This document shows positions 14,701-47,325 of a stretch of 64,000 nt of DNA, piece by piece. This DNA comes from Eubacteriales bacterium. GTDB lineage: Bacteria > Bacillota > Clostridia > Oscillospirales > CAG-272. The notes beneath the pieces were generated by a model. The model saw nothing but the letters and a program-made list of their open reading frames with translations. It did not search any database and was not told the origin of the DNA. The DNA is taken from contig JAZORD010000027.1 in NCBI GenBank assembly GCA_045656445.1, positions 2,452-66,451 of the forward strand, read 5' to 3'. How positions within the stretch are numbered: position 1 is the stretch's first letter; each line of letters starts with the position of its first letter. The translations under genes and the position numbers were made by a program.

Positions 14701-16131
14701 TTAACTTTTGTGGCTGCCAGGCTCGTCATTTTTCCTAAAATCCCGCTTTTTTGAACGGACGAGCAGTCTGCCTATTGCCCTTGGGTCAAACGGAATCAGG
14801 GGGTATAGATAGTGTCTTCCCGAAACCGTGTGGTTTGTGGAAACGAATACGCAAAAGAGAATTAATCCCAAGGCAAAGCCAAAGATGCCGAAAAGGTAAA
14901 CCAGCGCGAGTATCATCATACGCATAAACTTGAAGGCGTAGCCAAGCTCGTGATTTTGCTGGGCAAAATTCGCTATTGCCACAAATGCCATATACAGTAT
15001 AACGTCAGGCGAAAGCCAGCCAACCTCTACGGCAAAGTCGCCGAGAATCAGCGCGCCCACGATGGATAGGGAGTTTGAGAGCATATCGGGGGTGTTCATC
15101 GAGGCTATTTTTAAGCCGTCAATGGCAAATTCTACGAGAAAAAGCTGCAGGATTATCGGAAGTGCGCCCGGGTCGTCCGGAACTAAAAAGAGGAGTGCAT
15201 CGGGGAGCAGTTGAGAGTATTCAAGATAAAGATACCAGAGGGGCGTTATCACTACCGAAATCAAGAGAATTAGCGTTCTTATAATACGCAGATACGTACC
15301 CGTAAGTGGCGGAAAATAATAATCGTCGGTTTGCTCCATATAATGAAAAATGGATGTCGGCAGTATCATAACCTGCGGGGAGTTATCGCAGATGACGAGA
15401 ACGCTCCCTTCAAGAAGCTGCGCGGCAGCGGTGTCCGGTCGCTCGGTGGTTCTTATTTTTGGAAATGGGTTGAACCAGCCGCGGCGAATAAGTGACTCGG
15501 CAAGGCTTTGAAATCCGAGAGTTAGAGAACCGGGCTTTGCTTCCTTTAGCTTTTTGCCTATTCTCTCTACGAGTCCGGGGTCGGCGACACCGTTCATATA
15601 GCAAACGACCACGTCGGTTTTTGACGAGCCGCCCATATCGTAATGCTTCATAGTAAGGCGTTCGTCGCGTATTCTGCGGCGTATAAGCGCGGTGTTTGTG
15701 ACGAGCGTTTCAACAAAGCCGTCGTGCGAGCCCTGCATAACTCTGTCACTATCCGGCTCTTGGGTGCTTCTGGCGGGGTAGGTTCGAGCGTCAACGAGTA
15801 TTGCAAAATCTTCAAAGCTCTCGGCTAAAATTGCTGCCTGCCCCGATAAAACCGCGCGTATGACGGTGTCCTCATCCTGTGTAATTTCAACCTCGATATA
15901 GGGAAGCGTGTGTAGAAGGTCATTCGCCGTGCCAAGCTCCTTTTGAGAGAGCAAAAACTGCATTATCCTCTGCATTTCTCCGTCCTTGACAAATCCGTCA
16001 ACGAAGAAAAGAGATACGGCGCGCTTTGCAACGGTAAGCCGTCGCTCAATGAGGTCAAAGCTTTCGTTTACACGAAGGCTTTCGCGGATACGAGCTGCAT
16101 TTTCTCTGTAGTTTCCTGAAAGAAGACTCAT
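14701..16131 (-). CDS. Spore germination protein, GerA family A-subunit / SpoVAF-like
   Basis: 476 aa with a soluble N-terminal domain plus a C-terminal 4-5 TM region, which is typical GerAA/SpoVAF architecture and sequence style. No adjacent GerAB or GerAC genes. Confidence 0.75.
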   Translation of the reverse strand: MSLLSGNYRENAARIRESLRVNESFDLIERRLTVAKRAVSLFFVDGFVKDGEMQRIMQFLLSQKELGTANDLLHTLPYIEVEITQDEDTVIRAVLSGQAAILAESFEDFAILVDARTYPARSTQEPDSDRVMQGSHDGFVETLVTNTALIRRRIRDERLTMKHYDMGGSSKTDVVVCYMNGVADPGLVERIGKKLKEAKPGSLTLGFQSLAESLIRRGWFNPFPKIRTTERPDTAAAQLLEGSVLVICDNSPQVMILPTSIFHYMEQTDDYYFPPLTGTYLRIIRTLILLISVVITPLWYLYLEYSQLLPDALLFLVPDDPGALPIILQLFLVEFAIDGLKIASMNTPDMLSNSLSIVGALILGDFAVEVGWLSPDVILYMAFVAIANFAQQNHELGYAFKFMRMMILALVYLFGIFGFALGLILFCVFVSTNHTVSGRHYLYPLIPFDPRAIGRLLVRSKKRDFRKNDEPGSHKS

Positions 16132-22303: not shown

Positions 22304-24181
22304 TTAACAAGGGTTAGGATAACAGTTTTTAAGGTTTTCTAAACTGAGTTCTAACCAGTTTATTACGTAGTCAACGTGACCTTCCCAGGTTTGTATTCTA
22401 TAAATTTCCTCTGGGGAATAGCCGCTCGAATCAACACCGAGAATTTCCCAACGGTTAAAGTTGCGGTTGAAAGCTTCTTTATGGCTCATAACATAGTCAT
22501 AACAATCGGTGACAGTTGATGTTATAGTGTCTTCAAGCTCTGCGAGCCTATTTGCAACTATTTCGGTGAATTCATCGAATTTTAAGAGCCTATTATACCA
22601 GAAATTAGTTTCCTTTGCCCAAAGATATTCAATGTCAACTGCATTTTCCTGATAAGAACAGTTTCCCGTGCTTAAGTCATAGTCCCAAATAGGACCTCTA
22701 TATAGCTTTCCATCCTTATCCTTATACATATAAAAGCTTGAAAATCCTATGTCAACGCAGTGCATAAGCTCATCAAGGATATATCCGTCAGCAAAGCTGT
22801 AAACATCCATAAGGGACGTTACTTCGTTGAAGTCTTCTCCGTCAAGAGCGGTCATACACTGCTGGATATAGCTCTTAATATAAGCAACGTGAGCATCGTT
22901 GAAGTCCTCTTCCTCGGGGTCTGGAGATTTTATAGCGTAGTTTATTGAGCCGCTTCCAACTGGAATGTTGAAATAATCAATATTTTCAACGCCTTCCTGT
23001 GGCGCGCGTGAATCCATTTCTATAAGATATCCCGTGTTTGCAGAGGTGTAATCCTCGTCAATATCTACTCTGTGCGAGCCAACCTCAATCTGTTCGCAAA
23101 TCAGATACACACCGTCGTATCTGCCGTTTACGTAGACCTCGGCGGTTTTAAAGCTCGTTGTATAATTTAAATTTTCAAACTCAGCTCCAAGGGAGTATGC
23201 GATGTAGTTTCTTATTAAGCTGCAGTCCATATAATTTGCAATAATCGTCCAGGTTTTTGACTTTCCATTACCGAAAAGGTCAATCTTATCGTCGAACTTT
23301 AATTTGTACGGACTCTTTGGAAGATAAGCGGTTGAATTACCGCGAAGCTTTATTTTTCCGCTTTTGGAGGAAAATTCAAAATCGGGGTCAGCGTTTGATA
23401 CGGAAACCGAGCATTTTACGTAATCATCTTTTGTGGCAATGGGCTTAGAATCCTCGGTAACGATAGAGATAATGGGAAGATTTAACTCTTCCATCACGAA
23501 AACAGCCGTGACCGTTATATCCTCCTTGGCTATTACGGCAAGCTCTTTGGATTCTGCACCGTTGCTCCATCCTAGGAACTTATATCCAACGTCAGCAACT
23601 GCCGAAACAGGTTCGGAGGTGTTTCCGTAAGCTACGGATTGAGTCGTCTTGCCAGTTATGTATCCGCCATCGCTAGAAATATATTTAACGGTATAATGAA
23701 TTGGCGCGAACTCAGCGATAATCTCCATATTGCTTTGGGGAGCCAAATCGGTTCTTTTTGTATCGGTAATACCGTCACTCCACTTAACAAATTTGTATCC
23801 TTCGAGAGCGCATGCCTCGACCTGAGTGCAATCTTTACCGCGAGCAATTGTTTGAATTGAGTCGCCCGAGATATAGCCACCATTACTTGAGGCATACTTG
23901 ACGTTGTAATGAATTTGAGCAAACTCTGCAGTAATTTTGATATCGTCTTGGGGTTTGACGTCGGTTCTCGTAGCCTCGGTAACGCCGTCGCTCCACTTGA
24001 CAAAAGTATATCCGTCGTTTGCGATCGCGCTTACCGGAGTAAATTTCTTTGACTGCGACAAAACACCGTCGATGTAACCGCCCTCAGAGGCTTCGTAGTT
24101 AATCGTATAACCATTATCGCAAGCAAAAAAAGTCGCAGTAGAAAAAACAACCAAAATAATAAATAAAGCTTTTTTCAACAT
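22304..24181 (-). CDS. CotH kinase-family protein, predicted lipoprotein, with three N-terminal Listeria-Bacteroides (InlB B-type) repeats
   Basis: The C-terminal roughly 390 aa look CotH-like. The N-terminus is MLKKALFIILVVFSTATFFAC (signal peptide plus Cys). I prefer the ATG at 24181 (GGAAAGG RBS 8 nt upstream) over the ATG at 24208. Confidence 0.75.
   Translation of the reverse strand: MLKKALFIILVVFSTATFFACDNGYTINYEASEGGYIDGVLSQSKKFTPVSAIANDGYTFVKWSDGVTEATRTDVKPQDDIKITAEFAQIHYNVKYASSNGGYISGDSIQTIARGKDCTQVEACALEGYKFVKWSDGITDTKRTDLAPQSNMEIIAEFAPIHYTVKYISSDGGYITGKTTQSVAYGNTSEPVSAVADVGYKFLGWSNGAESKELAVIAKEDITVTAVFVMEELNLPIISIVTEDSKPIATKDDYVKCSVSVSNADPDFEFSSKSGKIKLRGNSTAYLPKSPYKLKFDDKIDLFGNGKSKTWTIIANYMDCSLIRNYIAYSLGAEFENLNYTTSFKTAEVYVNGRYDGVYLICEQIEVGSHRVDIDEDYTSANTGYLIEMDSRAPQEGVENIDYFNIPVGSGSINYAIKSPDPEEEDFNDAHVAYIKSYIQQCMTALDGEDFNEVTSLMDVYSFADGYILDELMHCVDIGFSSFYMYKDKDGKLYRGPIWDYDLSTGNCSYQENAVDIEYLWAKETNFWYNRLLKFDEFTEIVANRLAELEDTITSTVTDCYDYVMSHKEAFNRNFNRWEILGVDSSGYSPEEIYRIQTWEGHVDYVINWLELSLENLKNCYPNPC
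23495..24109 (-). repeat. Three tandem in-frame repeats of about 64-71 codons inside the CotH gene
   Basis: The repeats are Y(T/N)(I/V)xY.S..GGYI.G ... GY.F(V/L).WS(D/N)G ... (I/V)TA.F. They cover residues 34-97, 98-168 and 169-238 of the 634-aa track ORF. Confidence 0.75.
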
Positions 24182-24210
24182 AAAGAAAACCTTTCCACAA
24201 ATCCACAATC

Positions 24211-24280: not shown

Positions 24281-24871
24281 TTAAAACCAGCTCGTAATAA
24301 ATATTTCAAGACCTATTAATATGAGAATTGCACCACCGAAAATACCCGCCTTGCCGGCAAGACTTGTGCCTGCTTTTTTGCCGATTGCAATGCCTAAGAA
24401 GCAAATAAAGAAGGTAACTAATCCTATAAGAAGGCAGGAAAGAAGCGCCTCGGGAAATTCATATTCCGAAATGGTAAATCCTACCGAAAGCGCGTCAATT
24501 GAGGTTGCGATTCCCTGAACGACGAGCGCTCCGAAGCAGGCAACCTGGGTTTCCTCGCAGTTGGTGTCTTTATTTTTAATTCCTTCGTAAAGCATTTTTC
24601 CTCCGATATATCCAAGCAGTAAAAGCGCTATCCAAGGAATGAATTTTTCAAATTTTCCAAAAATCTGAGCGACCGTGGTAACGCAAACCCAGCCAAGAAG
24701 AGGCATAGCGAACTGGAAAAACGCGAAAATGCCGGCAACTCCGTACATTTTAGGTTTTTTCATACACGGCTCGCTCAGTCCGTTGGCTAGCGACACCGAG
24801 AAGGCGTCCATAGCAAGTCCAACGCCAAGCATAATGCTCATAAAAAAGAATGAAAAAACAGAGGGCATCAT
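24281..24871 (-). CDS. mntP: Manganese efflux pump MntP
   Basis: 196 aa, six TM helices, with a duplicated DAFSVS / DALSVG motif. Confidence 0.88.
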   Translation of the reverse strand: MMPSVFSFFFMSIMLGVGLAMDAFSVSLANGLSEPCMKKPKMYGVAGIFAFFQFAMPLLGWVCVTTVAQIFGKFEKFIPWIALLLLGYIGGKMLYEGIKNKDTNCEETQVACFGALVVQGIATSIDALSVGFTISEYEFPEALLSCLLIGLVTFFICFLGIAIGKKAGTSLAGKAGIFGGAILILIGLEIFITSWF

Positions 24872-25067
24872 TTTCTCCTAAAAAATCCAAGCGCGGATTG
24901 CCGAGCTTTGCATAGGGAAATACGACCTTATGCACAGGTGATTTCGGCTCGGAACGAGTTTAGCAATTTAAAACAAGCCAGACCTTTCTGTGAGGATGTT
25001 GATTTGTTACACCGGCGGCGCTTGCCACTACCTCAAAGGCTTAGATTATAGTAAAAATCTTCATTAC
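24872..25067 (-). promoter_or_regulatory. Structured 5' leader of mntP of about 195 nt (candidate metal-sensing riboswitch or attenuator; class unresolved)
   Basis: Runs from the predicted TSS to the start codon. It contains CCUUUGAGGUAGUGGC...CCUCACAGAAAGG pairing, a nested CCGAGC...GCUCGG helix, and a short hairpin AAUCCgcgcuuGGAUUUUUU that abuts the AGGAG RBS. Confidence 0.35.
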
Positions 25068-25073
25068 GCGGAC

Positions 25074-25102
25074 ATTATATCATACGAAAGATAAAATGTC
25101 AA
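25074..25102 (-). promoter_or_regulatory. Sigma-A-type promoter of mntP
   Basis: On the minus strand: TTGACA (25102..25097), 17-nt spacer ending in TGA, TATAAT (25079..25074). Confidence 0.55.
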
Positions 25103-25142
25103 TAAATTTCAATAGGCAAAAGCGAGAGCGTTCACGGTGGCA

Positions 25143-25493
25143 TTACCCAAGAGAGTATACTATGACGCCTAAAATTATCAAAGCCGTTCCAAGAAGTTGC
25201 TTTTTTGTGAGTTTTTCCTTTAAAAATGCAAAACTCATTAAGGCAACGAAAATATAACCGCAGGATTCAAGCACTGGTGACATTGAGAGAGGAACCACCT
25301 TAAGCGCGTACATAGATATAATTGTGCAGCCGAAAAACAATGTGTAGCCTATTATCACATAAGGGTTCAGGTACTCCCTGATTTTTGAAGAGTATTTTAT
25401 CCCAGCGCTTTTCTTTAAAAGGATTTGCGATACCGATGAAACGAATACGCTGAATAACAAAATGAGTGAATAAACGATAAGATCCTTATTCAT
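25143..25493 (-). CDS. Small four-TM EamA/DMT half-transporter (ArnE-like flippase subunit candidate)
   Basis: 116 aa with four hydrophobic helices. It overlaps the upstream paralogue by 8 nt and is the last gene of the glycosylation operon. Confidence 0.6.
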   Translation of the reverse strand: MNKDLIVYSLILLFSVFVSSVSQILLKKSAGIKYSSKIREYLNPYVIIGYTLFFGCTIISMYALKVVPLSMSPVLESCGYIFVALMSFAFLKEKLTKKQLLGTALIILGVIVYSLG

Positions 25494-25881
25494 CTTTCAC
25501 CTCTGCCGGTGTTTCGTTAGACTGACTTAAGTCTTGATCTGGGTCACTTTCGGTCACCATAAGAACAACTCCGATAAGAACGATTGCGGCTCCGACAATA
25601 TTCCAAACGGAAAGCGATTCGTCAAACATAGTTGCCCCAAACATCATCCCCCAAACGAGAGTGATGGATTTGTTTGCGAAAGCAAAATTTAACGGCATTA
25701 TTTTTAGTGTTTGCTGCCACAGCAGAGCATAACAACCCAAAATAAATATCTGAAGCGCGTATATTAAAAACCATTTCGTCGAGAAAAAATCAAGCTTGGA
25801 TGCATATTTAGAGCAAACCGAGCTCAACGCATAAAGGAAAATGATAGAATGAAGAAAGACGAGATTTTTAACTTTTTTCAT
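25486..25881 (-). CDS. Small four-TM EamA/DMT half-transporter (ArnF-like flippase subunit candidate)
   Basis: 131 aa with four hydrophobic helices and an acidic C-terminal tail. Paired with the 116-aa paralogue. Confidence 0.6.
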   Translation of the reverse strand: MKKVKNLVFLHSIIFLYALSSVCSKYASKLDFFSTKWFLIYALQIFILGCYALLWQQTLKIMPLNFAFANKSITLVWGMMFGATMFDESLSVWNIVGAAIVLIGVVLMVTESDPDQDLSQSNETPAEVKDE

Positions 25882-25898
25882 TATTTACACCCGTAACG

Positions 25899-27080
25899 TT
25901 ATTTCATTATGACGGAAATCCTGTCGTTAAATTCAACTACAGCGCGATTCATATCGTCAAGGTTGTCGTATTCATAGAAAATATAAGCTATGCGTTCATT
26001 CATGCAGTTTTCTATTTTTTCGCCTGGCACGCACATTTCTATTTTTTTATATATGTGTTTTTCTATATCCTCGGGGATAGAATAGGAAACGAGCGTTCCG
26101 TTTTTTTCAGCCATAATACCGTGGTGTCCGCAAAACGCTCTTTTTCTTTGAATCCTTTCAAGAGAGCGCGAGTCGCCGCCGGTTTGCGTTATAACCTGAG
26201 CTTTGTGCCACTGAAAATCGGTATTATCCTCAACAAGCTGAAGAAACTGATTTCCAAACGGTCTTCTCATCATCTCTATTATGCTGAATTTTTTACCGTC
26301 CCTTATGAGCTGAAACGCAAAAACGCCGTCAACCAAGGAAAGATCATCTGCTATAGATTCTATTATTCTGCAAAGCTCATCGGAAATATCCTGCATATGG
26401 ACAGCCGGCAATGTTTCCGATTGTATCAAATACGGATTAATTGGCGAATAGGAGTTGCATCCGGTATATGATACGACTCTTTTGTTTTGCAAAAAGGCAA
26501 CGAAAGTTTGCTGAACGCCTGTTATAAACGGCTCAATAATTATATTGTCGGAGCGAGTGACACGGTACGCGTTATCAACCGCGATGTATCCCTCCTCCTT
26601 ATTGTTTGCCTTCATAATTCCTTTCCCGCCGGTAAGGTCGGTTGCTTTCACTATTACAGGATAGGATGCAGAATCAAGATATTTCTTCGCTGATTCGGCA
26701 CTCGTAAAAACATTTGAGATGGGGGAGGGAATATTCTTCGCATTCAAATATTTCTTGAACTTGTCCTTCAGATGAAGAAGCTCGGCGTTTTTATAGGTAT
26801 CGTGTCCCTGCCATCCCATTTTTTCGGCAACATATGCCGCGGTCAGCACGCTGAAATCGTTAGCGCAGCTGATTATAGAATCTATTTTTCTATCCTTTAC
26901 AAGTTTCAGTATTGCTTCCTTGTCTGAATAATCGGCGGGGATATATTCGTCGGCATATCTGTGCCCGACAAGATGCGGTGCATTCCCGGTCGTTACTACG
27001 TAATAACCGAGCTTATGAGCCTCTTCAATAAGCGGAATTTCACAAAAGCTTCCGTTTAAAATCAGTACCTTTTTCTTCAT
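25899..27080 (-). CDS. ATP-grasp family ligase
   Basis: YPVIVKATDLTGGKGI (P-loop-like lid), IIIEPFITG, and EMMRRPFGN (Mg/ATP-binding E..N region). 393 aa. Confidence 0.75.
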   Translation of the reverse strand: MKKKVLILNGSFCEIPLIEEAHKLGYYVVTTGNAPHLVGHRYADEYIPADYSDKEAILKLVKDRKIDSIISCANDFSVLTAAYVAEKMGWQGHDTYKNAELLHLKDKFKKYLNAKNIPSPISNVFTSAESAKKYLDSASYPVIVKATDLTGGKGIMKANNKEEGYIAVDNAYRVTRSDNIIIEPFITGVQQTFVAFLQNKRVVSYTGCNSYSPINPYLIQSETLPAVHMQDISDELCRIIESIADDLSLVDGVFAFQLIRDGKKFSIIEMMRRPFGNQFLQLVEDNTDFQWHKAQVITQTGGDSRSLERIQRKRAFCGHHGIMAEKNGTLVSYSIPEDIEKHIYKKIEMCVPGEKIENCMNERIAYIFYEYDNLDDMNRAVVEFNDRISVIMK

Positions 27081-27081
27081 A

Positions 27082-28035
27082 TTACTCCTCGCCGCACTCG
27101 CCGTCGGAGTCCACGTTATAGGTTTCCCGAATAGCGAATTGGGGCGCTTTATTTAGGCTTATATAAATTCTTCCGATGTATTCTCCAAGAAGACCCAAAA
27201 ACAGCATTATGATACCCGACAGTATAAGCGTGATCGCCATAATTGAGCTGTATCCAACCGGTATTGTGGGATTAAGTATCTTCTTGATAATCGTTACGAT
27301 CGCGTAAGCGAATCCGCCGATAGAGCAAAAAACGCCAAAAAGCGACGCGATTCTGAGAGGTTTTTCCGAAAAAGCTGTAAATCCGTTCATCCAGAGAGAT
27401 AAAAGTTTTTTGAAGCTATATCCGGACGAGCCGTGCTCGCGCGATTTGTGCTCAATAACAACGTTTGCCATATTTCGCGTGATTCTGAGAATGAGTCCGT
27501 GAACAAAGGGGTAAGCGTTTTTGTATTTTATTATTTCATCAAGTATATACCTTTTAAAAACATAATAGCTATTTAGATCTATATCCTTCGGCTTTCCAAT
27601 AAAATAGGAGGACATCCAGAAGCTCAGCTTCGTTCCTATTTTTCTGAACAACGATCGCTTTTTCTCCTCATATTTTGCAGAAACCAAATCATAACCCTCA
27701 TCAAGCTTATCAATAAGCTTAAACATTTGGGACGGGGGGTTCTGACCGTCGTCGTCAAGGCAAACGATTATATCTCCCGTTGCGTAATTGAAGCCCGCCA
27801 TAAGCGCGGAATGCTGTCCAAAATTTCTTGAAAAGCTAAGGACTTTGATTTTTGAGTTCTTCTCCGCAATCCGCTTTAGAACATCAAGAGTGCTGTCTCT
27901 TGAAAAGTCGTTGACGCAGACAATTTCATAATCATATCTGCCGTCAGCGTTGACGGTATCTATGATTTCCGATATAACTCCGCCTACTGTTTGTTCCGAG
28001 CAATAGCAGGGAATAATAAACGAAAGTTTTTTCAT
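27082..28035 (-). CDS. Family 2 glycosyltransferase, polyprenyl-phosphate sugar transferase type (ArnC / GtrB / CsbB-like)
   Basis: IIPCY...NDFSRD...LDDDGQNP (DxD) catalytic domain plus two C-terminal TM helices. 317 aa. Confidence 0.85.
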   Translation of the reverse strand: MKKLSFIIPCYCSEQTVGGVISEIIDTVNADGRYDYEIVCVNDFSRDSTLDVLKRIAEKNSKIKVLSFSRNFGQHSALMAGFNYATGDIIVCLDDDGQNPPSQMFKLIDKLDEGYDLVSAKYEEKKRSLFRKIGTKLSFWMSSYFIGKPKDIDLNSYYVFKRYILDEIIKYKNAYPFVHGLILRITRNMANVVIEHKSREHGSSGYSFKKLLSLWMNGFTAFSEKPLRIASLFGVFCSIGGFAYAIVTIIKKILNPTIPVGYSSIMAITLILSGIIMLFLGLLGEYIGRIYISLNKAPQFAIRETYNVDSDGECGEE

Positions 28036-28060
28036 TTTTCTTTATCCTTTCGGGGCTATA

Positions 28061-28963
28061 TTAATTCTTGGAAAAGTATTCTTTAAGCTCAAGTATCATT
28101 TCCCGAATGTCGACCCGGGGAACGTATCCGGTATCCGCCTTGATTTTGTCAAGACAGACTTGCCAGCTACAATCGTCAGCGGGGTCCGGGGTTCCTGAAA
28201 AAACGATTTTCGACGTTGATCCGGTGAGCCTTACGCACATCTCTGCAAGGTCGCGGTTTGACACGAGATTATGGCTTGCAAGATTGTAAACTCCTTGTGC
28301 TTTTTTTGAAAGTATAGCTAGGTAAATTGCTTCAGCAATGTCGCTGACATGAACGTAGGTTTGCTTTCTTTTGCCCTCTCCTAATAGAGTGATGTTTTCC
28401 CCTTTTATCGCTTTGCTTACAAATACGGGGAAAATGGTTTTGGGGTTCATTCCGGGTCCTACGGGGGCGGATATTCTGTAGCTTACCGTTCTCACACCGT
28501 ATGTGTAATACGCATAGTTTGCAAGAAGCTCCTGCATAACCTTGGTGCAATGGTACACGGTAGGAGGTCTTAACGTGTGAGCTTCTGTAATAGGAGCTTC
28601 GGAGGGAGTGCCTATTACAGGAAGACTTGAAAGCTGAACGAAAACTCCCACTCCCTTGTTCCTGCAAAGCTCAAGAAGCCTCTGCGCACCGACGCAGTTG
28701 TTTTTGATTACGTCAAGCGTGTAGGGTTCTTTTCTCATATCTGCGGCGAGGTGAACGATTGCATCGGGCAGATTGTCCTTCGTCATACCGTCAAGAATTG
28801 TATCTGTTTTCTCGCTGTAAAGGTCGCAAAAAATATATTCATCGGTTTCAACCCTGGACTCCTCAGCCCTATCAAGACCTATAACGTAACAGCCCTTGCT
28901 TTTAAGATGGCGAACTACGTGACCACCTATAAAGCCGTTTGAGCCTGTAACTAAAACCTTCAT
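28061..28963 (-). CDS. NAD-dependent epimerase/dehydratase family SDR acting on a nucleotide sugar
   Basis: VTGSNGFIGGHV Rossmann motif and a Ser...YHCTK catalytic triad. There is no TDE motif of the 4,6-dehydratase type. Confidence 0.8.
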   Translation of the reverse strand: MKVLVTGSNGFIGGHVVRHLKSKGCYVIGLDRAEESRVETDEYIFCDLYSEKTDTILDGMTKDNLPDAIVHLAADMRKEPYTLDVIKNNCVGAQRLLELCRNKGVGVFVQLSSLPVIGTPSEAPITEAHTLRPPTVYHCTKVMQELLANYAYYTYGVRTVSYRISAPVGPGMNPKTIFPVFVSKAIKGENITLLGEGKRKQTYVHVSDIAEAIYLAILSKKAQGVYNLASHNLVSNRDLAEMCVRLTGSTSKIVFSGTPDPADDCSWQVCLDKIKADTGYVPRVDIREMILELKEYFSKN

Positions 28964-28989
28964 AACAAGAATCTCCTCGAAATTTCGAA

Positions 28990-30120
28990 TTATTTGTTAA
29001 AAAACTTGATTACGTGCTCTGTTACACGGTGCACATCGTCAACGGTTAATCCGTAATACATAGGAAGGCGGAGCAAACGTTCGCTTTCCCGGGTTGTGTA
29101 ACGATCCTCGCCGTTAAAACGTCCGTATTTTATACCCGCAGGAGCAGAGTGAAGCGGAATATAGTGGAAAACGGTCTGTATTTCATTAGATTTAAGATAG
29201 TTTATAAGCTCAGTTCTCTGCTCGCAATCTTTAACTTTTATATAAAACATATGCGCGTTGTGGCAGCAGTCCGTGGGAATAAAGGGAAGCTCAATAGCGC
29301 CCCTTTCCTCAAGCTGATAAAGGTGGCTATAATAAGTGTTCCAGCAGCTCATTCTTCTATTATATATTTCTCTTTCCTTTTCCAGCTGAGCCCAAAGATA
29401 CGCGGCGTTAATGTCGCTTGGAAGATATGAAGAGCCAAAATCAACCCAAGTATACTTATCTATCTGTCCTCTAAAAAATTTGCTTCGGTTAGTTCCTTTT
29501 TCTCTGACTATCTCGGCTTTTTCTATACTTTCGGGGTCCCTTATAAGAAGCGCGCCACCTTCACCCATACTGAGGTTTTTGGTTTCGTGGAAGGAATAGC
29601 ATCCGAAGTCGCTCAGCGTTCCAAGAGCCTGTTCTTTATAGGTTGAGCCAAATCCCTGCGCCGCGTCCTCAACGACTTTGAGATTGTATTTCTGCGCCAA
29701 AGCATTGATTTTATCCATATCACAGCTTACTCCGGCATAGTGAACGGGAACGATGGCCTTTGTTTTTTTAGTTATTGCATCCTCTATGAGATTTGCGTCG
29801 ATATTCATAGTTTTGGGGTCAATGTCAACGAACACCACCGTGGCTCCTCTTGAAACGAATGCATCTGCCGTGGAAACGAAGGTGTAAGAGGGCATAATAA
29901 CCTCATCCCCCGGTTTAATATCACACAGGATCGCAGCCATCTCAAGAGCGTGAGTACAGGAGGTGGTGAGAAGTGCTTTACTTGTGCCGGTAAATTCCTC
30001 TATCCAACGGTTACATTTTTTTGTAAACTCTCCGTCGCCGCAAATTTTGTGGTTGTTAATCGCATCCTCCACGTAAATTAATTCCTTTCCGACAAAGGGG
30101 GGAACATTAAAGTAAATCAT
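28990..30120 (-). CDS. DegT/DnrJ/EryC1-family PLP aminotransferase, closest in style to dTDP-4-amino-4,6-dideoxygalactose transaminase WecE
   Basis: Long stretches match my recollection of E. coli WecE: VIMPSYTFVSTA, VPVHYAGV.C.MD, FHETKN, REKGTNRS.FFRGQ.DKYTW, AHMFYIK, VFHYIPLH and GEDRYTT.ESERLLRLP. Confidence 0.88.
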   Translation of the reverse strand: MIYFNVPPFVGKELIYVEDAINNHKICGDGEFTKKCNRWIEEFTGTSKALLTTSCTHALEMAAILCDIKPGDEVIMPSYTFVSTADAFVSRGATVVFVDIDPKTMNIDANLIEDAITKKTKAIVPVHYAGVSCDMDKINALAQKYNLKVVEDAAQGFGSTYKEQALGTLSDFGCYSFHETKNLSMGEGGALLIRDPESIEKAEIVREKGTNRSKFFRGQIDKYTWVDFGSSYLPSDINAAYLWAQLEKEREIYNRRMSCWNTYYSHLYQLEERGAIELPFIPTDCCHNAHMFYIKVKDCEQRTELINYLKSNEIQTVFHYIPLHSAPAGIKYGRFNGEDRYTTRESERLLRLPMYYGLTVDDVHRVTEHVIKFFNK

Positions 30121-33095
30121 AGCTTATCCTTTTTATATTTGATTTTTGAAATTACGCATAGAGTAGAAAAGATCGCAATGCTAATGCAAGAAATTACAAG
30201 CCCGAGAGATATCATAGGAGTTCGATACTTAAAAACAACATTATGCTCTCCGGCAGATAATTGAATTGCAGAAAAGGCAATGTCACCGCGAACTATTTCC
30301 ACCTTGACACCGTCAACGTAAGCCGTCCATCCGTCCTCGTAAGGAATTGGCATCATAAGCCATCCGTCCTCGGATGTGTTGACCGTTCCAGTTATATAGT
30401 TGCTTTTGTCCGGTCTTTCGAAATTTATATAAGCTGTCGCTTCTTTTTCGTTTGATAGCCCCTCGGCGCCGTCTAGGATTAAAGAATTTCCAAGAACCTG
30501 TTTTTTTTGGTTTTTATCAAAGGAGATAAAATCCTCATAGCCTATCGTGCTCGTATAAAATTTGCCGAATCCTGACGTAGTATTGTTCCTGTAAACATGA
30601 ACACCTCCGAAGGTTTTGATATACTCGTATTCTGGAACGTCTGTAATAAGGAAATCGGACAAAATGTACTTCACGCCCATAATTGACGTTACGGCAGTGT
30701 TTTTGTATGCATACCTAAAGTCGTAATATCCGTCCTGATACGGATAGTTTCTTAATTCGGGGCAGGCGTTTGTAACGAAATCAATGACGTTTTTATTTAT
30801 TATTGAGTTGTAAACCGATACACCGTAATAGCCCTCAAGCATAGCGTCGTTCCATTTACAAACTCCCATAAAGGTTTTGTCAGTTCGGTGGAAGGAGGTG
30901 TCAATTTGCTCAATGTAATCAAGAGCGTCAATAACGTCAGAGTTGCCCGAATCCTCATAAATACGCAAATCTGCCTCGCAAATTTTTATTCGAGAATTGG
31001 TGGTGATATATCCGTCAATCGATACGTTTGAAACTACCAAGCAAGCAATAAAAGCAATACTAAGCGTTTTTTTGAATTTGGGTTGAGCAGTGTCTTGAAG
31101 AGCGCAGGTTGCAAAAGCAAACAGCATCATTAAAACAATATAAATCGTTGCGGTCTCCCCAACGTCCTTAGCTAAACCTGCCTGCGCGTTTTCGGTCAAA
31201 ATTTTAGCAAACAGGAAAACCGACAGCACCGAGGCGGAGCATATTTGCAGGCGCGCGTGAGACAATCCGCCATTTATCAGCTTGTCAAGGGTGTCCGCAA
31301 ACAACAGGGCGAAGATTGGCATTAATATAAAAGTGTATCTGAAAAAGTCAGTAACGAATCCGTTCAATATAACCGACATCAGCGGATGAAAAATCAAGGC
31401 CGCAATGATGAAAACGGAAGCCAACTTTAAGACTTTAGTCTTAGCGGATTCTTTTCTGTCCAAGAGAATATTCAATAAAAAGATGAAAATGAATGATACG
31501 AAGAAAACAGAGAAGAAAAATTGAGGACTCTCGTAATAATTTAAGCCTCCGGACGGTTTTCCCGCTCCGTTTAGGTTGTTTGAGAAGAATCTTGAGACTA
31601 TTTCCCGAACCATAGCATCATCATAGCGAGGAGCTTTAAAATAGCTCAATAAAACGTCAAAAATCGCCACTTCGCCGCCAACCCGCGCGCTCGTTGTGAG
31701 AATAAGGTAAACGCAGGGGATAAAAATAGCAGCAGACATACCGATGCCAAGGAACACCGAGGCTAAAAGAGCACCGCACCTTTTCACCGCAGGTACGAAT
31801 TCGGATTTTGAATATATAGAAATGATGCGGAACAAAGCGTAGATGGCTGCCATGATAAGAATCATATAGGCAAAATAATAAGAGCTAACCGCAACGCAAA
31901 AAACAGATATAATAAGCCAGATATATCCGTTGCGGTGTTTTAATGCGCGCTCTATTCCAAATAAAACAAAAACGGCACAGATTGGCGCTGTTGCAAAAAA
32001 GTAGTGCTGTCCCCAAAGCATCGTAAAGCCATTGAACGCGAACACGTAGGACGCTATAACCTTTGAGGAGCTTGAAAAATTAAAGCTGGAAAGGTAAAAA
32101 TAACATAAATATCCAGAAACGAAGAGTTTCAGCACCTGAGAAAACGGAAGCAAATATTTAATTGCGTTTTTCCCAAAAATCAGAGTAAGCCAAACAAAAG
32201 GACTGGTTACGTCGGTTTGTCTGCCTAGAATATTGGTGCCAAGACCATAAGAGAAATCCCACATAGAAAAATCGAGCGTCTCGAGCTTCTCCTGCATTGC
32301 CATAAAGAAGGGATAGTATACGTTGCGGGTGTCGCTGCCGATATCAGAATAGATAAATATTTCGCGGCAGAGCAAAAAGTCTTTGAAAACTATAAAAGAG
32401 GTCGCTACCATCAAAGCTGAAAGAACAATTAAGGGACGCTTTGCTATATAATTTTTAGTTTTAGAGAGTGCTTGGAGAACAGTAATATCCGACGCCTTGC
32501 ATCTCAAAATAGTATAGATGCTCAAAATCAATGCAAGTGACACTGCTAAAAATGTCAAAAAGATCCTAAGAAAATTAAAGGGCTGTGTAAATCCCCTGTG
32601 CGTACCAATAAGCTCGCCGGAGCTAACTACGACATCCGCAAGAGAAAACCTTTTGTTTATATCCAAGCGTATTGATTCGTACGTCTCACCGGGCAAAGAC
32701 ACGCAAATCGCATCCTCGCCCTTTTCAATTATCGCAGTAACCGAATTTGTGGCGGAAAACGGCTCGCCTGCCTTGCAGAAGAAGATCTGTATAGCACTTT
32801 CAATATGAGATTTTGACTCAAAACGTATCAAGAGCGTTTTGATGTTTTGGTTTATTCCTGAAATAATAATCTGTGGGTCGTTGTTTATCGGAGTATAGGA
32901 GTTATCCGTTTCCTTGTACCCTTGGCTGTATCTAGGATAGACCTCATCGTCTAAAACAGAGGTTTGTCGTTCGGAAAAATCATACAAGCTGCCCTGCGTG
33001 AAAAAAAACGCCTCTAAAAACAAGGAAAAAAGAAGCGATATTGCAAGAAGCAAAATCAACTTATAATGCTTTTTTAAGAAAACGGATATTTTCAT
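30117..33095 (-). CDS. YfhO-family GT-C-type membrane glycosyltransferase (992 aa) with an extra N-terminal extracytoplasmic domain
   Basis: N-terminal TM, a soluble segment of about 140 aa, about 12-14 TM helices, a C-terminal extracytoplasmic domain of about 250 aa, and a final TM. The SDIGSDTRNVYYPFF...WDFSYGLGTNILG region is YfhO-like. It overlaps the aminotransferase start by 4 nt. Confidence 0.7.
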   Translation of the reverse strand: MKISVFLKKHYKLILLLAISLLFSLFLEAFFFTQGSLYDFSERQTSVLDDEVYPRYSQGYKETDNSYTPINNDPQIIISGINQNIKTLLIRFESKSHIESAIQIFFCKAGEPFSATNSVTAIIEKGEDAICVSLPGETYESIRLDINKRFSLADVVVSSGELIGTHRGFTQPFNFLRIFLTFLAVSLALILSIYTILRCKASDITVLQALSKTKNYIAKRPLIVLSALMVATSFIVFKDFLLCREIFIYSDIGSDTRNVYYPFFMAMQEKLETLDFSMWDFSYGLGTNILGRQTDVTSPFVWLTLIFGKNAIKYLLPFSQVLKLFVSGYLCYFYLSSFNFSSSSKVIASYVFAFNGFTMLWGQHYFFATAPICAVFVLFGIERALKHRNGYIWLIISVFCVAVSSYYFAYMILIMAAIYALFRIISIYSKSEFVPAVKRCGALLASVFLGIGMSAAIFIPCVYLILTTSARVGGEVAIFDVLLSYFKAPRYDDAMVREIVSRFFSNNLNGAGKPSGGLNYYESPQFFFSVFFVSFIFIFLLNILLDRKESAKTKVLKLASVFIIAALIFHPLMSVILNGFVTDFFRYTFILMPIFALLFADTLDKLINGGLSHARLQICSASVLSVFLFAKILTENAQAGLAKDVGETATIYIVLMMLFAFATCALQDTAQPKFKKTLSIAFIACLVVSNVSIDGYITTNSRIKICEADLRIYEDSGNSDVIDALDYIEQIDTSFHRTDKTFMGVCKWNDAMLEGYYGVSVYNSIINKNVIDFVTNACPELRNYPYQDGYYDFRYAYKNTAVTSIMGVKYILSDFLITDVPEYEYIKTFGGVHVYRNNTTSGFGKFYTSTIGYEDFISFDKNQKKQVLGNSLILDGAEGLSNEKEATAYINFERPDKSNYITGTVNTSEDGWLMMPIPYEDGWTAYVDGVKVEIVRGDIAFSAIQLSAGEHNVVFKYRTPMISLGLVISCISIAIFSTLCVISKIKYKKDKL

Positions 33096-33138: not shown

Positions 33139-33160
33139 TATAATACCATTATAATACCAT
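33139..33160. repeat. Perfect tandem duplication of an 11-mer (TATAATACCAT x2)
   Basis: Copies at 33139..33149 and 33150..33160. On the minus strand each copy reads ATGGTATTATA, which is an extended -10-like element. Confidence 0.9.
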
Positions 33161-33179
33161 ACACTATCTACAAAGTCAA
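33151..33179 (-). promoter_or_regulatory. Sigma-A-type promoter of the glycosylation operon
   Basis: On the minus strand: TTGACT (33179..33174), 17-nt spacer ending in TGG, TATTAT (33156..33151). Confidence 0.5.
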
Positions 33180-33408: not shown

Positions 33409-34329
33409 ATGACAGATATGCACATTCCGATATTTTTTTCAACAGACGATAATTACATACCGTATCTCGACGTTGCCATAGCGTCGCTTATAACAAACGC
33501 ATCAAAAGAATACAAATACAGGATCATCGTTTTGAATACAGGACTCAAACCGGAGAATGTTGAGCGGGTTAAGAAAAACGAAAGACCGGGTATTACTATT
33601 GACTTTTTGGATATATCGGATGAGGTAGAGAAGATAAAATCCCGCCTCAAAAACGTATATCATTTTTCGGTAGCAACATATTACAGGCTTTTTATCGCGT
33701 CTCTTTTCCCGCAGTATGATAAAATAGTTTACCTTGACTGCGACCTCGTTGTTCTGGGGGATATATCCGAGCTTTATAACACCGAGCTTGGTGAAAATAT
33801 TTTGGGAGCAGCTCCCGAAGAGTTCGTTCAGAATACCAAGGAATTTCGGGATTATGCAAGGGTGGCTCTCGGAGTTGACCCCGACGGCTACGTCAATGCG
33901 GGAGTTCTCGTCATTAACCTTGAAGAGTTCAGGAAAAACGAGATTGAAAAAAAGTTCTTGAGGCTTATAACCGAATACGATTTCGACCTTCTCGATCCAG
34001 ACCAGGCGTACTTAAACTATCTTTGTGACGGCAAAATTTGCGTTTTGCCAAACGGATGGAACAAAGAGCCTATGCAGGTTCTTTGCGAGGGAAAGAAGAA
34101 CATAGTTCATTACGCGCTTTATAAGAAGCCCTGGCAGTACGACGACGTTCTTGACGGAGAATACTTTTGGCATTACGCTAAGAGCTCACCCTTTTATGAC
34201 ATTATACTTGAAAGAAAAGCGAGCTTTGGAGAACTTGAGCGTGCAGAAAAGGAAGCTATGAAAGATGAGATACTTGAGCATGCAAAGAAAATAACTGCGT
34301 CTGACTATACTTTTTCCAAAAAGCTTTGA
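33409..34329 (+). CDS. Family 8 glycosyltransferase (GspA / LPS 1,3-galactosyltransferase-like)
   Basis: IPIFFSTDDNYIPYL, YYRLF, YLDCDLVVLGD (DxD), and a HY...KPW C-terminal block. Confidence 0.85.
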   Translation: MTDMHIPIFFSTDDNYIPYLDVAIASLITNASKEYKYRIIVLNTGLKPENVERVKKNERPGITIDFLDISDEVEKIKSRLKNVYHFSVATYYRLFIASLFPQYDKIVYLDCDLVVLGDISELYNTELGENILGAAPEEFVQNTKEFRDYARVALGVDPDGYVNAGVLVINLEEFRKNEIEKKFLRLITEYDFDLLDPDQAYLNYLCDGKICVLPNGWNKEPMQVLCEGKKNIVHYALYKKPWQYDDVLDGEYFWHYAKSSPFYDIILERKASFGELERAEKEAMKDEILEHAKKITASDYTFSKKL

Positions 34330-34348
34330 GAAAGCTGAGGACGGCAAA

Positions 34349-35179
34349 ATGGAAAAATCCCCTCATAAGCTGGAGCTTATTAAAAAAATCTCGGAGTTTG
34401 AGAAAAAAGGGCTCTGGCACCTTGACGTAGAGGACGACCCGGAAACCTATCCGCTTATGCCTGACGCGGTGGATTATCTCAACGAGAGGCTCACAAGCAA
34501 AATAAAAAACCAAATCGCAAACCGACTTGGCGCAAGGTTTTTTGACAAAATGATTAAAAACCGAAGGCTCATTATAAAGGAAGTGCGCGGAATTGAGAAT
34601 TTTACTGCGGTAAAAGGCGGTAAAATCATTACCTGCAACCATTTCAATCCCTGCGATAACTACGCCGTATGGGTAGCATTGCGAGAGCATATGGGTGGAA
34701 AAAAGCTGTATAAGGTCATTCGCGAGGGCAACTACACCAACCCCCCGAAGCCCTTTGGTCTTTTTATGCGCCATTGCAACACGCTTCCCCTGTCAAGTCA
34801 GGTGGCAACTATGAAAAAATTTATGAAAGCCGTTAAGACTCTGCTCGAACGGGGTGAATCCATACTTATATATCCCGAGCAGAGTATGTGGTGGAATTAC
34901 CGCAAGCCGAAGCCGATGCAGGACGGCGCTTTTTCTCTTGCCGTTCGCAATAACGCCCCCGTTCTGCCGATATTCATTACTATGGAGGATAGCGACACAC
35001 TTGATGACGACGGATTTTTCGTTCAGGAATACACGGTCAACGTGCTTCCGGCTATTTATCCCGACCCGGACGTTTCCGGCGCAGAAGCAAAGGAAAAAAT
35101 GAAAAATGAAAACTATGAGGCGTGGGTAAGGGTCTATGAGGATTTTTACAAAAAGCCCCTCGTGTACGGTGAAATATGA
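34349..35179 (+). CDS. PlsC-family acyltransferase (lysophospholipid acyltransferase-like)
   Basis: HX4D (CNHFNPCDN) and a YPEQSMW block. 276 aa. Confidence 0.7.
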   Translation: MEKSPHKLELIKKISEFEKKGLWHLDVEDDPETYPLMPDAVDYLNERLTSKIKNQIANRLGARFFDKMIKNRRLIIKEVRGIENFTAVKGGKIITCNHFNPCDNYAVWVALREHMGGKKLYKVIREGNYTNPPKPFGLFMRHCNTLPLSSQVATMKKFMKAVKTLLERGESILIYPEQSMWWNYRKPKPMQDGAFSLAVRNNAPVLPIFITMEDSDTLDDDGFFVQEYTVNVLPAIYPDPDVSGAEAKEKMKNENYEAWVRVYEDFYKKPLVYGEI

Positions 35180-35763
35180 AGCTGTATCTTTCTACGATAG
35201 GTATCGCGATGACGGTGATTTCCGCAATTAACATAGCCTTCGGCGTGGCTGTGTGGTATTACGTCATAGCGTCTGTCGTTTGGTGCACGGCGCTCTGCTT
35301 TGCTCTTGACGGCGGTATAGCGATTCTTATAAATAAAATGCCTGACTGTTGGTTTGGAGTCGATAATCCGCGCTTTGAGGTATCCAAGAGGGAAATGGAG
35401 CTTTACAAAAGGTTGAGGGTAAGGCTATGGAAGGATAAGGTATGGGAACTTGGCGGTCTTGGGGGATTCAGCAAAAAAACCTTGCTTGAGCCGGACAGTC
35501 CGGAATACATAGAAAAGTTTATAATCGAGTGCAATAAAGGTGTTATCACGCACAGGTTATCCTATCCTGCGGGATTTCTCGTAATGCTGACGATGTTGAA
35601 TATTTGCTCCTTTACCGTGGCGCTTCCGGTTGCGGCGGTTAATCTACTCCTTAATATTTTGCCAACTCTTGCCCTCAGATATAACACGCCGAAGCTAAAA
35701 ACGCTTCTAAATAGACTGAGAAAAAAGCAAGAAAGGGCGCGTGAGTGCGCGGATATAATGTAG
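35176..35763 (+). CDS. CrtO-like membrane acyltransferase (glycosyl-4,4'-diaponeurosporenoate acyltransferase family)
   Basis: The C-terminal half (IEKFIIECNKGVITHRLS...LLNILPTLALRYNTPKLKTLLNRLRKK) parallels my recollection of S. aureus CrtO (IEKMIIETKRAELIHW...[27 protein letters not shown]). It overlaps the upstream stop codon by 4 nt. Confidence 0.6.
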   Translation: MKLYLSTIGIAMTVISAINIAFGVAVWYYVIASVVWCTALCFALDGGIAILINKMPDCWFGVDNPRFEVSKREMELYKRLRVRLWKDKVWELGGLGGFSKKTLLEPDSPEYIEKFIIECNKGVITHRLSYPAGFLVMLTMLNICSFTVALPVAAVNLLLNILPTLALRYNTPKLKTLLNRLRKKQERARECADIM

Positions 35764-37702: not shown

Positions 37703-37770
37703 TTTTATCTCCTTTAAAATTGATAATGCTTCGGAACATGGCACTTTACATATTCATCGCCGAATTCTTC

Positions 37771-38712: not shown

Positions 38713-38764
38713 AACAATCTCCATTCTGCCGCCACAGCGGCCTAGCAAATATAGTATTGTGTTA

Positions 38765-39757: not shown

Positions 39758-39868
39758 GTCCTCCCGTATCCCTTATTACATCCGAGGGTGTTATAAGCTA
39801 CTTCAATTATACAACATTTCTGCAAATATTGGAAGATAAAAATAAAAAAATTATTTTTCGAAAAGCAC

Positions 39869-39896
39869 TTGATTTTCGTGAGTTTCGTTGTATAAT
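39869..39896 (+). promoter_or_regulatory. Candidate promoter of the lyase/mutase operon
   Basis: TTGATT (39869..39874), 16-nt spacer, TATAAT (39891..39896). Confidence 0.4.
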
Positions 39897-40019
39897 GTTG
39901 TTGACAGCATATTGTACTAAAATTAAAACAATTGTAATAAGTCGCGTGACGTGTATTTAGTAGCAGATTGCTTTGAAAATCCGCGGGGCTTATGAGATTT
40001 TATAAAAGGAGCTTTACTT

Positions 40020-40292
40020 ATGGAGGTCTTAAAGCGCGCATGTGCCGGAACTATGGAATCGAGCGACGCTTATGTAGAGATTGAGCCTTGTTCGAGGGGA
40101 TTGAGTATCCATTTGGAATCGGTGGTTGAAAAACAGTTCGGAGATAAAATCAGAGCTACGGTCGAGGACGTTCTTTGCCGTTGCAAAGTAAAAAACGCCG
40201 CGGTACGCGTTATTGACCGAGGAGCTCTTGATTGCGTTATTCGCGCCAGAGTTGAAGCCGCAATAATAAGAGGAACGGGAGAGAGCGTATGA
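40020..40292 (+). CDS. citD: Citrate-lyase-type acyl carrier protein (gamma subunit)
   Basis: AGTMESSDAYVEIEP, with the prosthetic-group serine in its usual context. 90 aa. Confidence 0.9.
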   Translation: MEVLKRACAGTMESSDAYVEIEPCSRGLSIHLESVVEKQFGDKIRATVEDVLCRCKVKNAAVRVIDRGALDCVIRARVEAAIIRGTGESV

Positions 40293-42575: not shown

Positions 42576-42583
42576 CGGGAGAT

Positions 42584-47308: not shown

Positions 47309-47325
47309 TATAAGGAGTATAAAAA

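Follow-up and report, generated by a model that had tools for sequence, protein, structure and literature searches.

Which sugar might be made, and on what might it be placed, by a compact operon of seven genes from Eubacteriales bacterium (GTDB lineage Bacteria; Bacillota; Clostridia; Oscillospirales; CAG-272)? The operon lies on a stretch of 64,000 nucleotides (assembly GCA_045656445.1, contig JAZORD010000027.1, positions 2,452 to 66,451), hereafter the window, and brings together a YfhO-family GT-C glycosyltransferase, a WecE-type aminotransferase, a short-chain dehydrogenase/reductase (SDR), a membrane-anchored GT2 glycosyltransferase, an ATP-grasp ligase and two small EamA/SMR-like membrane proteins. 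A first-pass annotation had proposed an undescribed Arn-like system that modifies the cell surface with a lipid-linked amino sugar. Our analysis points, with a probability of about 0.6, to a trans-membrane glycosylation system of several components that includes its own donor pathway and would decorate its acceptor by way of a lipid monophosphate. The product is most likely an N-acylated 4-amino-4,6-dideoxy sugar, and the operon is an uncharacterised but recurring variant of the three-component surface glycosylation systems. The firm part of this proposal lies in the family identities of the proteins and the genomic linkage of their genes, and every chemical step is inferred. We found no published characterisation of the gene set in the literature, in agreement with the claim that the system is undescribed.

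A YfhO-family transferase with an additional N-terminal module

The seven co-directional open reading frames (ORFs) span 33095..25143 on the minus strand (Table 1; coordinates from the ORF list of the window) and are joined by junctions of -4, 26, 25, 1, 17 and -8 nt, in that order, with gene overlaps at 30117-30120 and 25486-25493, which reproduces the tight packing described initially. The first gene encodes a 992-residue protein that matches PF09586 with 237 bits (cutoff 28.5) over residues 254-865, the YfhO core extending approximately from residue 205 to 990, and the same domain is present in all 108 homologues found. An alignment of 39 homologues shows that G253 and D255 of its DIGSD motif are invariant and D251 nearly so. 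The AlphaFold2 (AF2) model of the protein (pLDDT 85.5) has its best solved-structure matches in AftD, an entry for a secretory-translocon complex, ArnT and EmbB; together with the motif, these matches confirm a GT-C fold whose first extracytoplasmic loop holds conserved acidic residues. Both the domain score and the structural matches bear out the original assignment as a YfhO-type GT-C.

The first 205 residues form a module without any Pfam match, which the AF2 model resolves into two helices (2-33 and 175-199) enclosing strands between residues 55 and 159, i.e., a β-sandwich of roughly 100 residues between two transmembrane (TM) segments. The placement of the catalytic loop predicts an extracytoplasmic location for the sandwich. 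Most YfhO homologues lack this module; it is common to 630-647-residue GT-C-like proteins that head the same cassette elsewhere and to other extended YfhO proteins, and is weakly shared with a 451-residue ABC-2 permease of a neighbouring polysaccharide cluster. Its 201 representative relatives are mostly found at the N-terminus of proteins of 620-750 residues. The full 992-residue model gives weak partial matches (E ~0.02) to β-sandwiches of the carbohydrate-binding-module type, which may fall in the N-terminal module or in the C-terminal β-domain, and it is a guess that the module helps to bind a polymer.

A GT2 of the ArnC/GtrB class

The 317-residue GT2 aligns over its full length with the models of PgfS (205 bits, cutoff 500) and ArnC (NF007986, 190 bits, cutoff 529), and its best match among PDB sequences is ArnC (176 bits), with GtrB at 155 bits. 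It contains a DDDGQNPP motif and two C-terminal hydrophobic helices, and its PF00535 match, together with end-to-end alignments that include the C-terminal TM region, upholds the earlier placement in the ArnC/GtrB/CsbB class with two C-terminal TM helices. By these scores the protein is an ArnC homologue and not an equivalog, and it is predicted to load a sugar onto undecaprenyl phosphate. Assignment of the GT2 and the YfhO protein as Pgf equivalogs was likewise rejected, the NCBIfam scores being 205 bits for PgfS (cutoff 500) and, as the top matches of the 992-residue protein, 69 bits for PgfM2 (cutoff 1500) and 43 bits for PgfM1 (cutoff 1400).

Three enzymes predicted to act on the sugar

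The 376-residue aminotransferase belongs to the DegT family (PF01041, 314 bits) and exceeds the cutoffs of the WecE equivalog model NF008687 (628.6 bits, cutoff 375, residues 1-374 of 376) and of TIGR02379 (621.5 bits, cutoff 434.85); the solved WecE structures 6blg and 4piw are matched with 534 and 530 bits. Against the ArnB model NF008658 it reaches 198.9 bits (cutoff 631). On this comparison the enzyme is a WecE orthologue and not ArnB, so that the initial label of a WecE/ArnB-class enzyme is kept for its DegT/WecE half and dropped for ArnB orthology (199 against 631).

The extended SDR (300 residues) keeps the YxxxK motif and the NAD-type aspartate, and thus appears to be NAD-dependent, a candidate epimerase or oxidoreductase. 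It scores 103 bits against the RmlB model TIGR01181 (cutoff 365) and 32.9 bits (E = 3e-8) against the UDP-4-keto-pentose synthase model (cutoff 294). Its alignment to RmlB and DesIV shows SSLP in place of STDE, which holds the catalytic Thr-Asp-Glu, and several loci have RmlA and RmlB-like genes of their own next to the cassette; on the grounds of the active-site alignment and of the separate RmlB-like gene, the SDR was rejected as the missing 4,6-dehydratase.

The 393-residue ATP-grasp protein matches the PurD, PurT and PurK models, all below cutoff, and although it has the fold and the ATP-grasp residues in common with PurD (glycinamide ribonucleotide synthetase), its 61.6 bits against TIGR00877 (cutoff 288) led us to reject that identity. 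Residues typical of ATP-grasp enzymes are invariant in its family alignment. The AF2 model (pLDDT 93) has the uncharacterised structure 4dim as its top Foldseek match, and its best TM-scores, 0.81-0.83, are to L-amino-acid ligases. These ligases and the PurD/PurT-type enzymes join a small carboxylate to an amine via an acyl phosphate, and by analogy the operon enzyme is predicted to form an amide between the sugar's 4-amino group and a small carboxylic or amino acid; the acyl substrate could not be narrowed by fold comparison alone. The SDR and ATP-grasp family claims of the first-pass annotation both agree with the models matched.

Distant relatives of the ATP-grasp protein, 26-29% identical, adjoin a DegT aminotransferase and a sugar oxidoreductase on the Brachyspira hyodysenteriae plasmid pBhyoB78 (L060) and on a Rhizobium plasmid (L061), a context that hints at a general module for oxidation, transamination and N-acylation. 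The Brachyspira relatives sit amid genes for rhamnan synthesis and for other ATP-grasp amidoligases.

A pair of small EamA/SMR-like proteins

The last two genes encode 4-TM proteins of 131 and 116 residues. Both match EamA, as had been claimed, but the 131-residue protein does so below the Pfam cutoff. Its top NCBIfam match is ArnE (30 bits), and the 116-residue protein has weak matches to EbrA, ArnE and ArnF; the two score 30 and 29 bits against ArnE (cutoff 92) and 25 and 22 bits against ArnF (cutoff 99). Among 23 members of the small-protein family, ArnE is the model most frequently matched (20 of 23), EbrB being matched by 16. The start of the 116-residue gene overlaps the 131-residue gene by 8 nt, and the two are adjacent in 15 loci.

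The distribution of lysine plus arginine is biased in opposite ways in the two types (6.6 against 3.1 in the 131-residue type, 1.9 against 7.9 in the 116-residue type), from which an antiparallel heterodimer is predicted. No acidic residue is present in TM1 in the alignment of the 23 members. A review names a central glutamate as a key mechanistic residue of the proton-coupled SMR pumps (PMC9574504). The absence of this TM1 glutamate and the SMR scores below cutoff speak against the pair as proton-coupled SMR drug exporters of the EmrE, EbrAB or Qac kind. The proposal of a heterodimeric ArnE/F-type flippase is thus favoured by the frequency of ArnE matches, the missing acidic residue and the opposite charge biases, but tempered by SMR models that match similarly, with all models below cutoff.

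Recurrence of the cassette across genomes

A profile scan of species-representative genomes with the ATP-grasp protein retrieved 51 loci, and our census comprises 48 of these, all from different species, in addition to the window. GT2 genes lie within 9 kb of the ATP-grasp gene in 40 of the 48 loci, WecE genes in 36 and SDR genes in 30, to which 9 loci with an alternative SDR can be added; the small pair lies within this distance in 15, and the gene order varies between loci. The hosts are mostly gut and rumen Clostridia, but also Collinsella, Eggerthellaceae (Coriobacteriia), Bacteroidales, Syntrophaceae and a few others, and all close homologues come from uncultured or uncharacterised organisms. 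No phage-borne copy was found in a profile scan of viral contigs with the ATP-grasp protein, which makes a gtr-like serotype-converting prophage unlikely; we discarded this candidate.

The closest relatives (L001, L052 and L054) have an ATP-grasp protein 78-84% identical to that of the window and 60-89% identity in the other five genes, the six downstream genes being 65-89% identical in L052 and L054. Their first gene, however, is not YfhO and encodes a polytopic protein of 637-643 residues. In Pfam, these ~640-residue proteins have only sub-threshold PMT_2 matches (4 of 6 members) and one GtrII match, and a profile search of PDB sequences and NCBIfam gave no match, the ArnT model included. 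They carry a PDE-x-x-RY motif that may be ArnT-like. Other large membrane proteins replace YfhO in further loci.

Only two near-full-length YfhO relatives cover the first ~200 residues (43-45% identical), and both head a second, deeply diverged lineage of the same seven families. This lineage (L055 and L056, with L059 as a third example) retains the EamA pair and a WecE of 72% identity, but its ATP-grasp protein and GT2 are only ~25% identical and its SDR shows no relationship at the sensitivity used. Next to the cassettes of L052, L055 and L059 lie rmlA, rmlB and rmlC together with polysaccharide genes of the ABC-transporter type; L052 and L055 adjoin rhamnan-type clusters, and the L059 cassette is directly followed by rmlA, rmlC, rmlB and an ABC-2 permease. 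A cassette of this kind is headed by each of the N-extended YfhO homologues P0122, P0123 and P0140, whereas the one short homologue checked, P0124, which lacks the N-terminal extension, heads none. The distribution suggests a donor cassette that is conserved and mobile between species, with an exchangeable final transferase. The seven genes had been presented as one unit; their parts do co-occur in many genomes, but YfhO is not a fixed member, the nearest relatives having another GT-C-like protein.

Two further gene sets were observed. In L058 (9001-20426), a 1027-residue YfhO protein (P0141), whose N-extension is inferred from its length and 92% query coverage only, heads an aminotransferase/GT2 cluster with a nucleotidyltransferase, two SDRs, a 447-residue DegT-family protein, a GtrA flippase, a thiamine pyrophosphate-dependent enzyme, a methyltransferase and a GT2, a different tailoring set; those YfhO systems that bring their own pathway for an unusual sugar may thus form a broader class. 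In L008, L025-L027, L029, L031 and L051, the ATP-grasp, GT2 and WecE genes are accompanied by genes for KdsA-like (DAHP_synth_1), cytidylyltransferase-like and cupin proteins, a KdsC-like phosphatase and an FkbM methyltransferase, a set which suggests that the glycan also contains an acidic, Kdo-like sugar or, possibly, that this sugar is the carboxylate joined by the ligase.

Proposed pathway

We propose that dTDP-4-keto-6-deoxy-D-glucose, supplied by rmlA and rmlB located elsewhere in the genome, would be converted by the WecE orthologue into dTDP-4-amino-4,6-dideoxy-D-galactose, the reaction predicted for this family. By way of an acyl phosphate, the ATP-grasp enzyme would link a small carboxylate, be it formate, glycine or a different amino or hydroxy acid, to the 4-amino group as an amide, a step proposed because its chemistry parallels that of PurD, PurT and the L-amino-acid ligases, and the NAD-type SDR may carry the nucleotide sugar through one more reaction, a redox change or an epimerisation but not the 4,6-dehydration. 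At the inner leaflet, the ArnC/GtrB-class GT2 would move the sugar to undecaprenyl phosphate, the pair of small 4-TM proteins, as an antiparallel heterodimer, would flip the lipid-linked sugar as ArnE and ArnF do, and the YfhO GT-C would pass it to an acceptor outside the cell. The most probable choices for this acceptor are a wall polysaccharide of the rhamnose type and a teichoic acid, the wall polysaccharide being favoured because three related loci (L052, L055 and L059) adjoin rhamnan-type clusters. As the ATP-grasp protein is the only candidate N-modifying enzyme and would acylate the amine, a free cationic amine is less likely, and the cationic sugar envisaged at first was overstated; the sugar may, however, be aminoacylated.

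Several points weigh against this pathway. As far as is known, the members of this GT2 class that have been characterised take UDP- or GDP-sugars, and a dTDP-sugar donor would be unusual among them. The 64-kb window contains neither rmlA nor rmlB (RmlA and RmlB-like queries from related loci match only the cassette SDR, at ~23% identity), so that the supply of the precursor is assumed. The SDR is nearly always present yet has no assigned step, and the pathway may consequently start from, or pass through, another sugar. SMR drug-pump models match the small pair about as well as ArnE and ArnF do, all below cutoff. No teichoic acid or polysaccharide genes adjoin the operon in the window, for which reason the acceptor is deduced from other genomes.

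Alternative explanations

The same donor pathway might serve a protein acceptor, with YfhO O-glycosylating Ser/Thr-rich regions of extracytoplasmic or surface proteins in the manner of Pgf or GtrB/PgtC2, and with the downstream CotH lipoprotein as a candidate substrate. We regard this as rather unlikely, but as a serious alternative. Streptococcal YfhO-domain enzymes do glycosylate proteins (PMC12041528, PMC5856776), and PgfS, PgfM2 and PgfM1 are the top NCBIfam matches of the GT2 and of the YfhO protein, but their scores fall far below the equivalog cutoffs (205 against 500; 69 against 1500). A CotH/Flg_new protein follows the cassette in the window (24208..22304, past mntP) and, directly, in L054 (68% identity), but the linkage is seen in the nearest relative only and may be functional or plain synteny, and inspection by eye, not computation, revealed no long Ser/Thr-rich tract in the CotH sequence. 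The rhamnan-type polysaccharide clusters beside three related loci, as well as the β-sandwich module weakly common to the ABC-2 permease of such a cluster, also argue against a protein.

A further possibility, which seems doubtful to us, is a charge-modifying Arn-like system whose surface sugar carries a free positive charge, either as a bare 4-amino sugar or through an amino acid with a free α-amine, rendering the surface less anionic and protecting it from cationic peptides. The architecture is indeed Arn-like (aminotransferase, ArnC-like GT2, ArnE/F-like small proteins and GT-C), the ATP-grasp model is nearest to L-amino-acid ligases and PurD, whose carboxylate substrate is an amino acid, and two loci have two ATP-grasp paralogues, as would fit a stepwise addition of amino acids. 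Yet the acyl group might equally be formate or another neutral acid, PurT and PurK being comparably related; none of the seven proteins is a deformylase- or deacylase-like enzyme that could unmask the amine; and the ORF list and Pfam show no regulator gene among the seven. It is highly unlikely, finally, that the operon performs no lipid-monophosphate decoration at all, the GT2 being an ordinary cytoplasmic transferase of a repeat-unit pathway, the EamA-like pair an exporter of a small metabolite and YfhO an unrelated neighbour. This would suit the matches of the small proteins to SMR and DMT exporter models, the lack of conservation of YfhO with the cassette and the position of the cassette inside larger polysaccharide clusters in many loci. 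It is at odds with the end-to-end alignment of the GT2 with ArnC, GtrB and PgfS, which takes in the pair of C-terminal TM helices that polyprenyl-phosphate transferases typically have, and with the translational packing of the seven genes. Where YfhO is missing, moreover, its position is taken by another large polytopic GT-C-like protein (with hints of PMT_2 and GtrII), which in the closest relatives has the same N-terminal module, and N-extended YfhO proteins head cassettes (P0122, P0123, P0140) or a related aminotransferase/GT2 cluster (P0141), in contrast to the short P0124.

Comparison with known systems

Lipid-monophosphate decoration with a built-in donor pathway, which we prefer, can be set beside several described systems. 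The reviewed multi-component systems of Gram-positive bacteria (CsbB/GtcA/YfhO, GtlA/GtcA/GtlB, GacI-L, CsdAB-EF/CflA and GtsABC) move galactose, glucose or N-acetylglucosamine and use GtrA- or Wzx-type flippases (PMC8035078); the initial statement that known Firmicute systems move hexose or N-acetylglucosamine with a GtrA-type flippase agrees with this review, which adds the Wzx type. Like the Gram-positive three-component systems, the operon combines a membrane-anchored GT2 that would form a C55-P-sugar, a putative small flippase and an outside GT-C, here a true YfhO member. It differs from them in its donor, which would not be a common UDP-hexose or UDP-HexNAc but a product of its own WecE, SDR and ATP-grasp enzymes, in its flippase candidate, a two-gene EamA/SMR-like pair (no GtrA-type (PF04138) or Wzx-like protein was found among the seven proteins with Pfam and NCBIfam), and in the extra N-terminal TM/β-sandwich/TM module of its YfhO protein.

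The Arn system, which modifies lipid A with 4-amino-4-deoxy-L-arabinose (Ara4N), resembles the operon, as read here, in its DegT-family 4-aminotransferase, ArnC-like GT2 and GT-C and, by prediction for the operon, in N-acylation before or around lipid loading and a small heterodimeric 4-TM flippase. However, every operon component scores below the cutoff of the Arn equivalog models. The WecE orthologue would act on a dTDP-6-deoxyhexose, not a UDP-pentose, and the amide would come from an ATP-grasp ligase where that of Arn comes from a formyltransferase; counterparts of ArnA (formyltransferase/decarboxylase) and ArnD are missing, no formyltransferase or polysaccharide-deacetylase domain being present in the seven proteins. 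The GT-C belongs to the YfhO family, not to ArnT, in a host without lipid A. A one-to-one map onto arnBCADTEF, as first drawn, therefore fails: ArnA and ArnD are absent, WecE is not ArnB, the SDR has SSLP, and YfhO is not ArnT.

The streptococcal Pgf and GtrB-PgtC2 systems likewise place a GT2 undecaprenyl-phosphate-sugar synthase, an SDR epimerase and a YfhO-domain GT-C in one operon (PMC12041528, PMC5856776). [quoted passage not shown] The aminotransferase, which passes the WecE model, also recalls the WecE step of enterobacterial common antigen, where dTDP-Fuc4N is formed and then turned by WecD into dTDP-Fuc4NAc. Unlike that pathway, the operon has an ATP-grasp enzyme in place of a WecD-type acetyltransferase, and its product would reach a monophosphate lipid carrier via GT2, not a lipid-PP-linked trisaccharide.

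Implications

The overall logic of the system is known and will not surprise a specialist of the cell envelope. What is unusual is the predicted lipid-linked N-acyl-aminodeoxyhexose donor and a candidate flippase of a type not yet described in Firmicutes, and what is new is an unannotated module present in ~200 protein clusters. The design appears modular, in that the donor cassette is conserved while the GT-C can be exchanged. Should the acyl group prove to be an amino acid, Gram-positive bacteria would have a further, novel route by which amines reach their wall. The surface glycans of gut Clostridia, which are almost unexplored, determine phage susceptibility, immune recognition and resistance to host peptides.

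A more far-reaching picture, which we offer as speculative, is that of a widespread family of envelope decoration in gut and rumen Clostridia and in Coriobacteriia, in which the ATP-grasp enzyme would aminoacylate a 4-amino-4,6-dideoxyhexose with one amine left free, no polyprenyl-phosphate transferase of this class before the GT2 would have used a dTDP-sugar, flipping of the lipid-linked sugar would fall to an antiparallel heterodimer of SMR-like proteins, and interchangeable GT-Cs, guided by the new β-sandwich module, would decorate a wall polysaccharide. To our knowledge, flipping of a lipid-linked sugar by such a heterodimer has so far been reported mainly from Proteobacteria. If true, Gram-positive bacteria would have in this family an equivalent of the charge modifications by Ara4N or D-alanyl groups, and it would affect resistance to cationic peptides, adsorption of phages and recognition by the host.

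Table 1. Coordinates of the operon, its genes and other features (positions in the window unless a locus is named)
Feature	Position	Strand	Basis
YfhO-family GT-C, 992 aa, predicted extracytoplasmic transferase	30117..33095	-	PF09586
N-terminal module of the 992-aa protein, residues 1-205, TM/β-sandwich/TM	32481..33095	-	AF2 model
WecE-type pyridoxal phosphate (PLP) aminotransferase, 376 aa	28990..30120	-	NF008687, TIGR02379, PF01041
Extended SDR, 300 aa	28061..28963	-	PF01370, 148 bits
Membrane-anchored GT2, 317 aa, ArnC/GtrB/PgfS/CsbB class	27082..28035	-	PF00535
ATP-grasp ligase, 393 aa	25899..27080	-	GARS_A and other ATP-grasp models
4-TM EamA/SMR-like protein, 131 aa, predicted N-in, putative flippase half 1	25486..25881	-	EamA 24.6 bits, below cutoff
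4-TM EamA/SMR-like protein, 116 aa, predicted N-out, putative flippase half 2	25143..25493	-	EamA 38.9 bits, above cutoff
Promoter-like site TTGACT-17 nt-TATTAT, extended TG, upstream of the 992-aa gene	33151..33179	-	10/12 consensus matches
Sigma-70 promoter of mntP, perfect 12/12	25102..25074	-	consensus scan
CotH-kinase-domain protein with Listeria-Bacteroides repeats and lipoprotein-like N-terminus	22304-24208	-	homologue at L054 12121-13776
GerA germination protein	16131..14701	-	Pfam annotation of flanking ORFs
Second lineage, same seven families, N-extended YfhO first	L055 9001-19023; L056 9001-16946; L059 9001-17931		

Promoter and genomic setting

A single promoter had been assigned to the operon. 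The site is present, and it is plausible as the operon promoter (33179..33151) on the strength of its consensus match, but as sigma-70-like matches are abundant in the region (38 observed against 23 expected) its status is not proven. A purine-rich ribosome-binding site is clear upstream of five of the seven starts and weaker for the 992- and 131-residue genes. The next gene, mntP, has its own promoter, which places the 3' end of the unit at 25143. The operon has a G+C content of 41.6%, a little below the 46.5% of the remaining window, and its surroundings are of a housekeeping nature (hrcA-grpE-dnaK-dnaJ, RNase Y, MnmG, citrate lyase, fumarase, the methylaspartate pathway and the pyr operon). 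Metagenome-assembled Ruminococcaceae and Clostridia provide the best named relatives of MnmG, in line with an uncultured host similar to these groups. Among 43 flanking ORFs, Pfam revealed no sugar-nucleotide or polysaccharide genes apart from one GT8.

Approximately 200 nt separate the promoter at 25102..25074 from mntP (24871..24281), a manganese exporter gene; this leader (24872-25142, minus strand) has no Rfam match even with the E-value limit relaxed to 1, and the Mn riboswitch that is common at this position is among the families without a match. Divergent from the operon, on the plus strand (33409-35763), lie genes for the GT8 glycosyltransferase, a PlsC-type acyltransferase and a CrtO-like glycosyl-lipid acyltransferase, which may form a glycolipid-modifying unit; GT8, the one of the three that was searched for, was not found beside the cassette in other loci, save for one weak match of 30% in L010. 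Farther away, regions 36365-48576 and 53689-62242 hold the genes for citrate lyase together with those accessory to it, for fumarase and for glutamate fermentation by way of methylaspartate, as well as a pyrimidine operon that is complete. The GerA protein supports the earlier description of the host as a spore former, and the gene content is consistent with an anaerobic, spore-forming, amino-acid-fermenting Clostridium.

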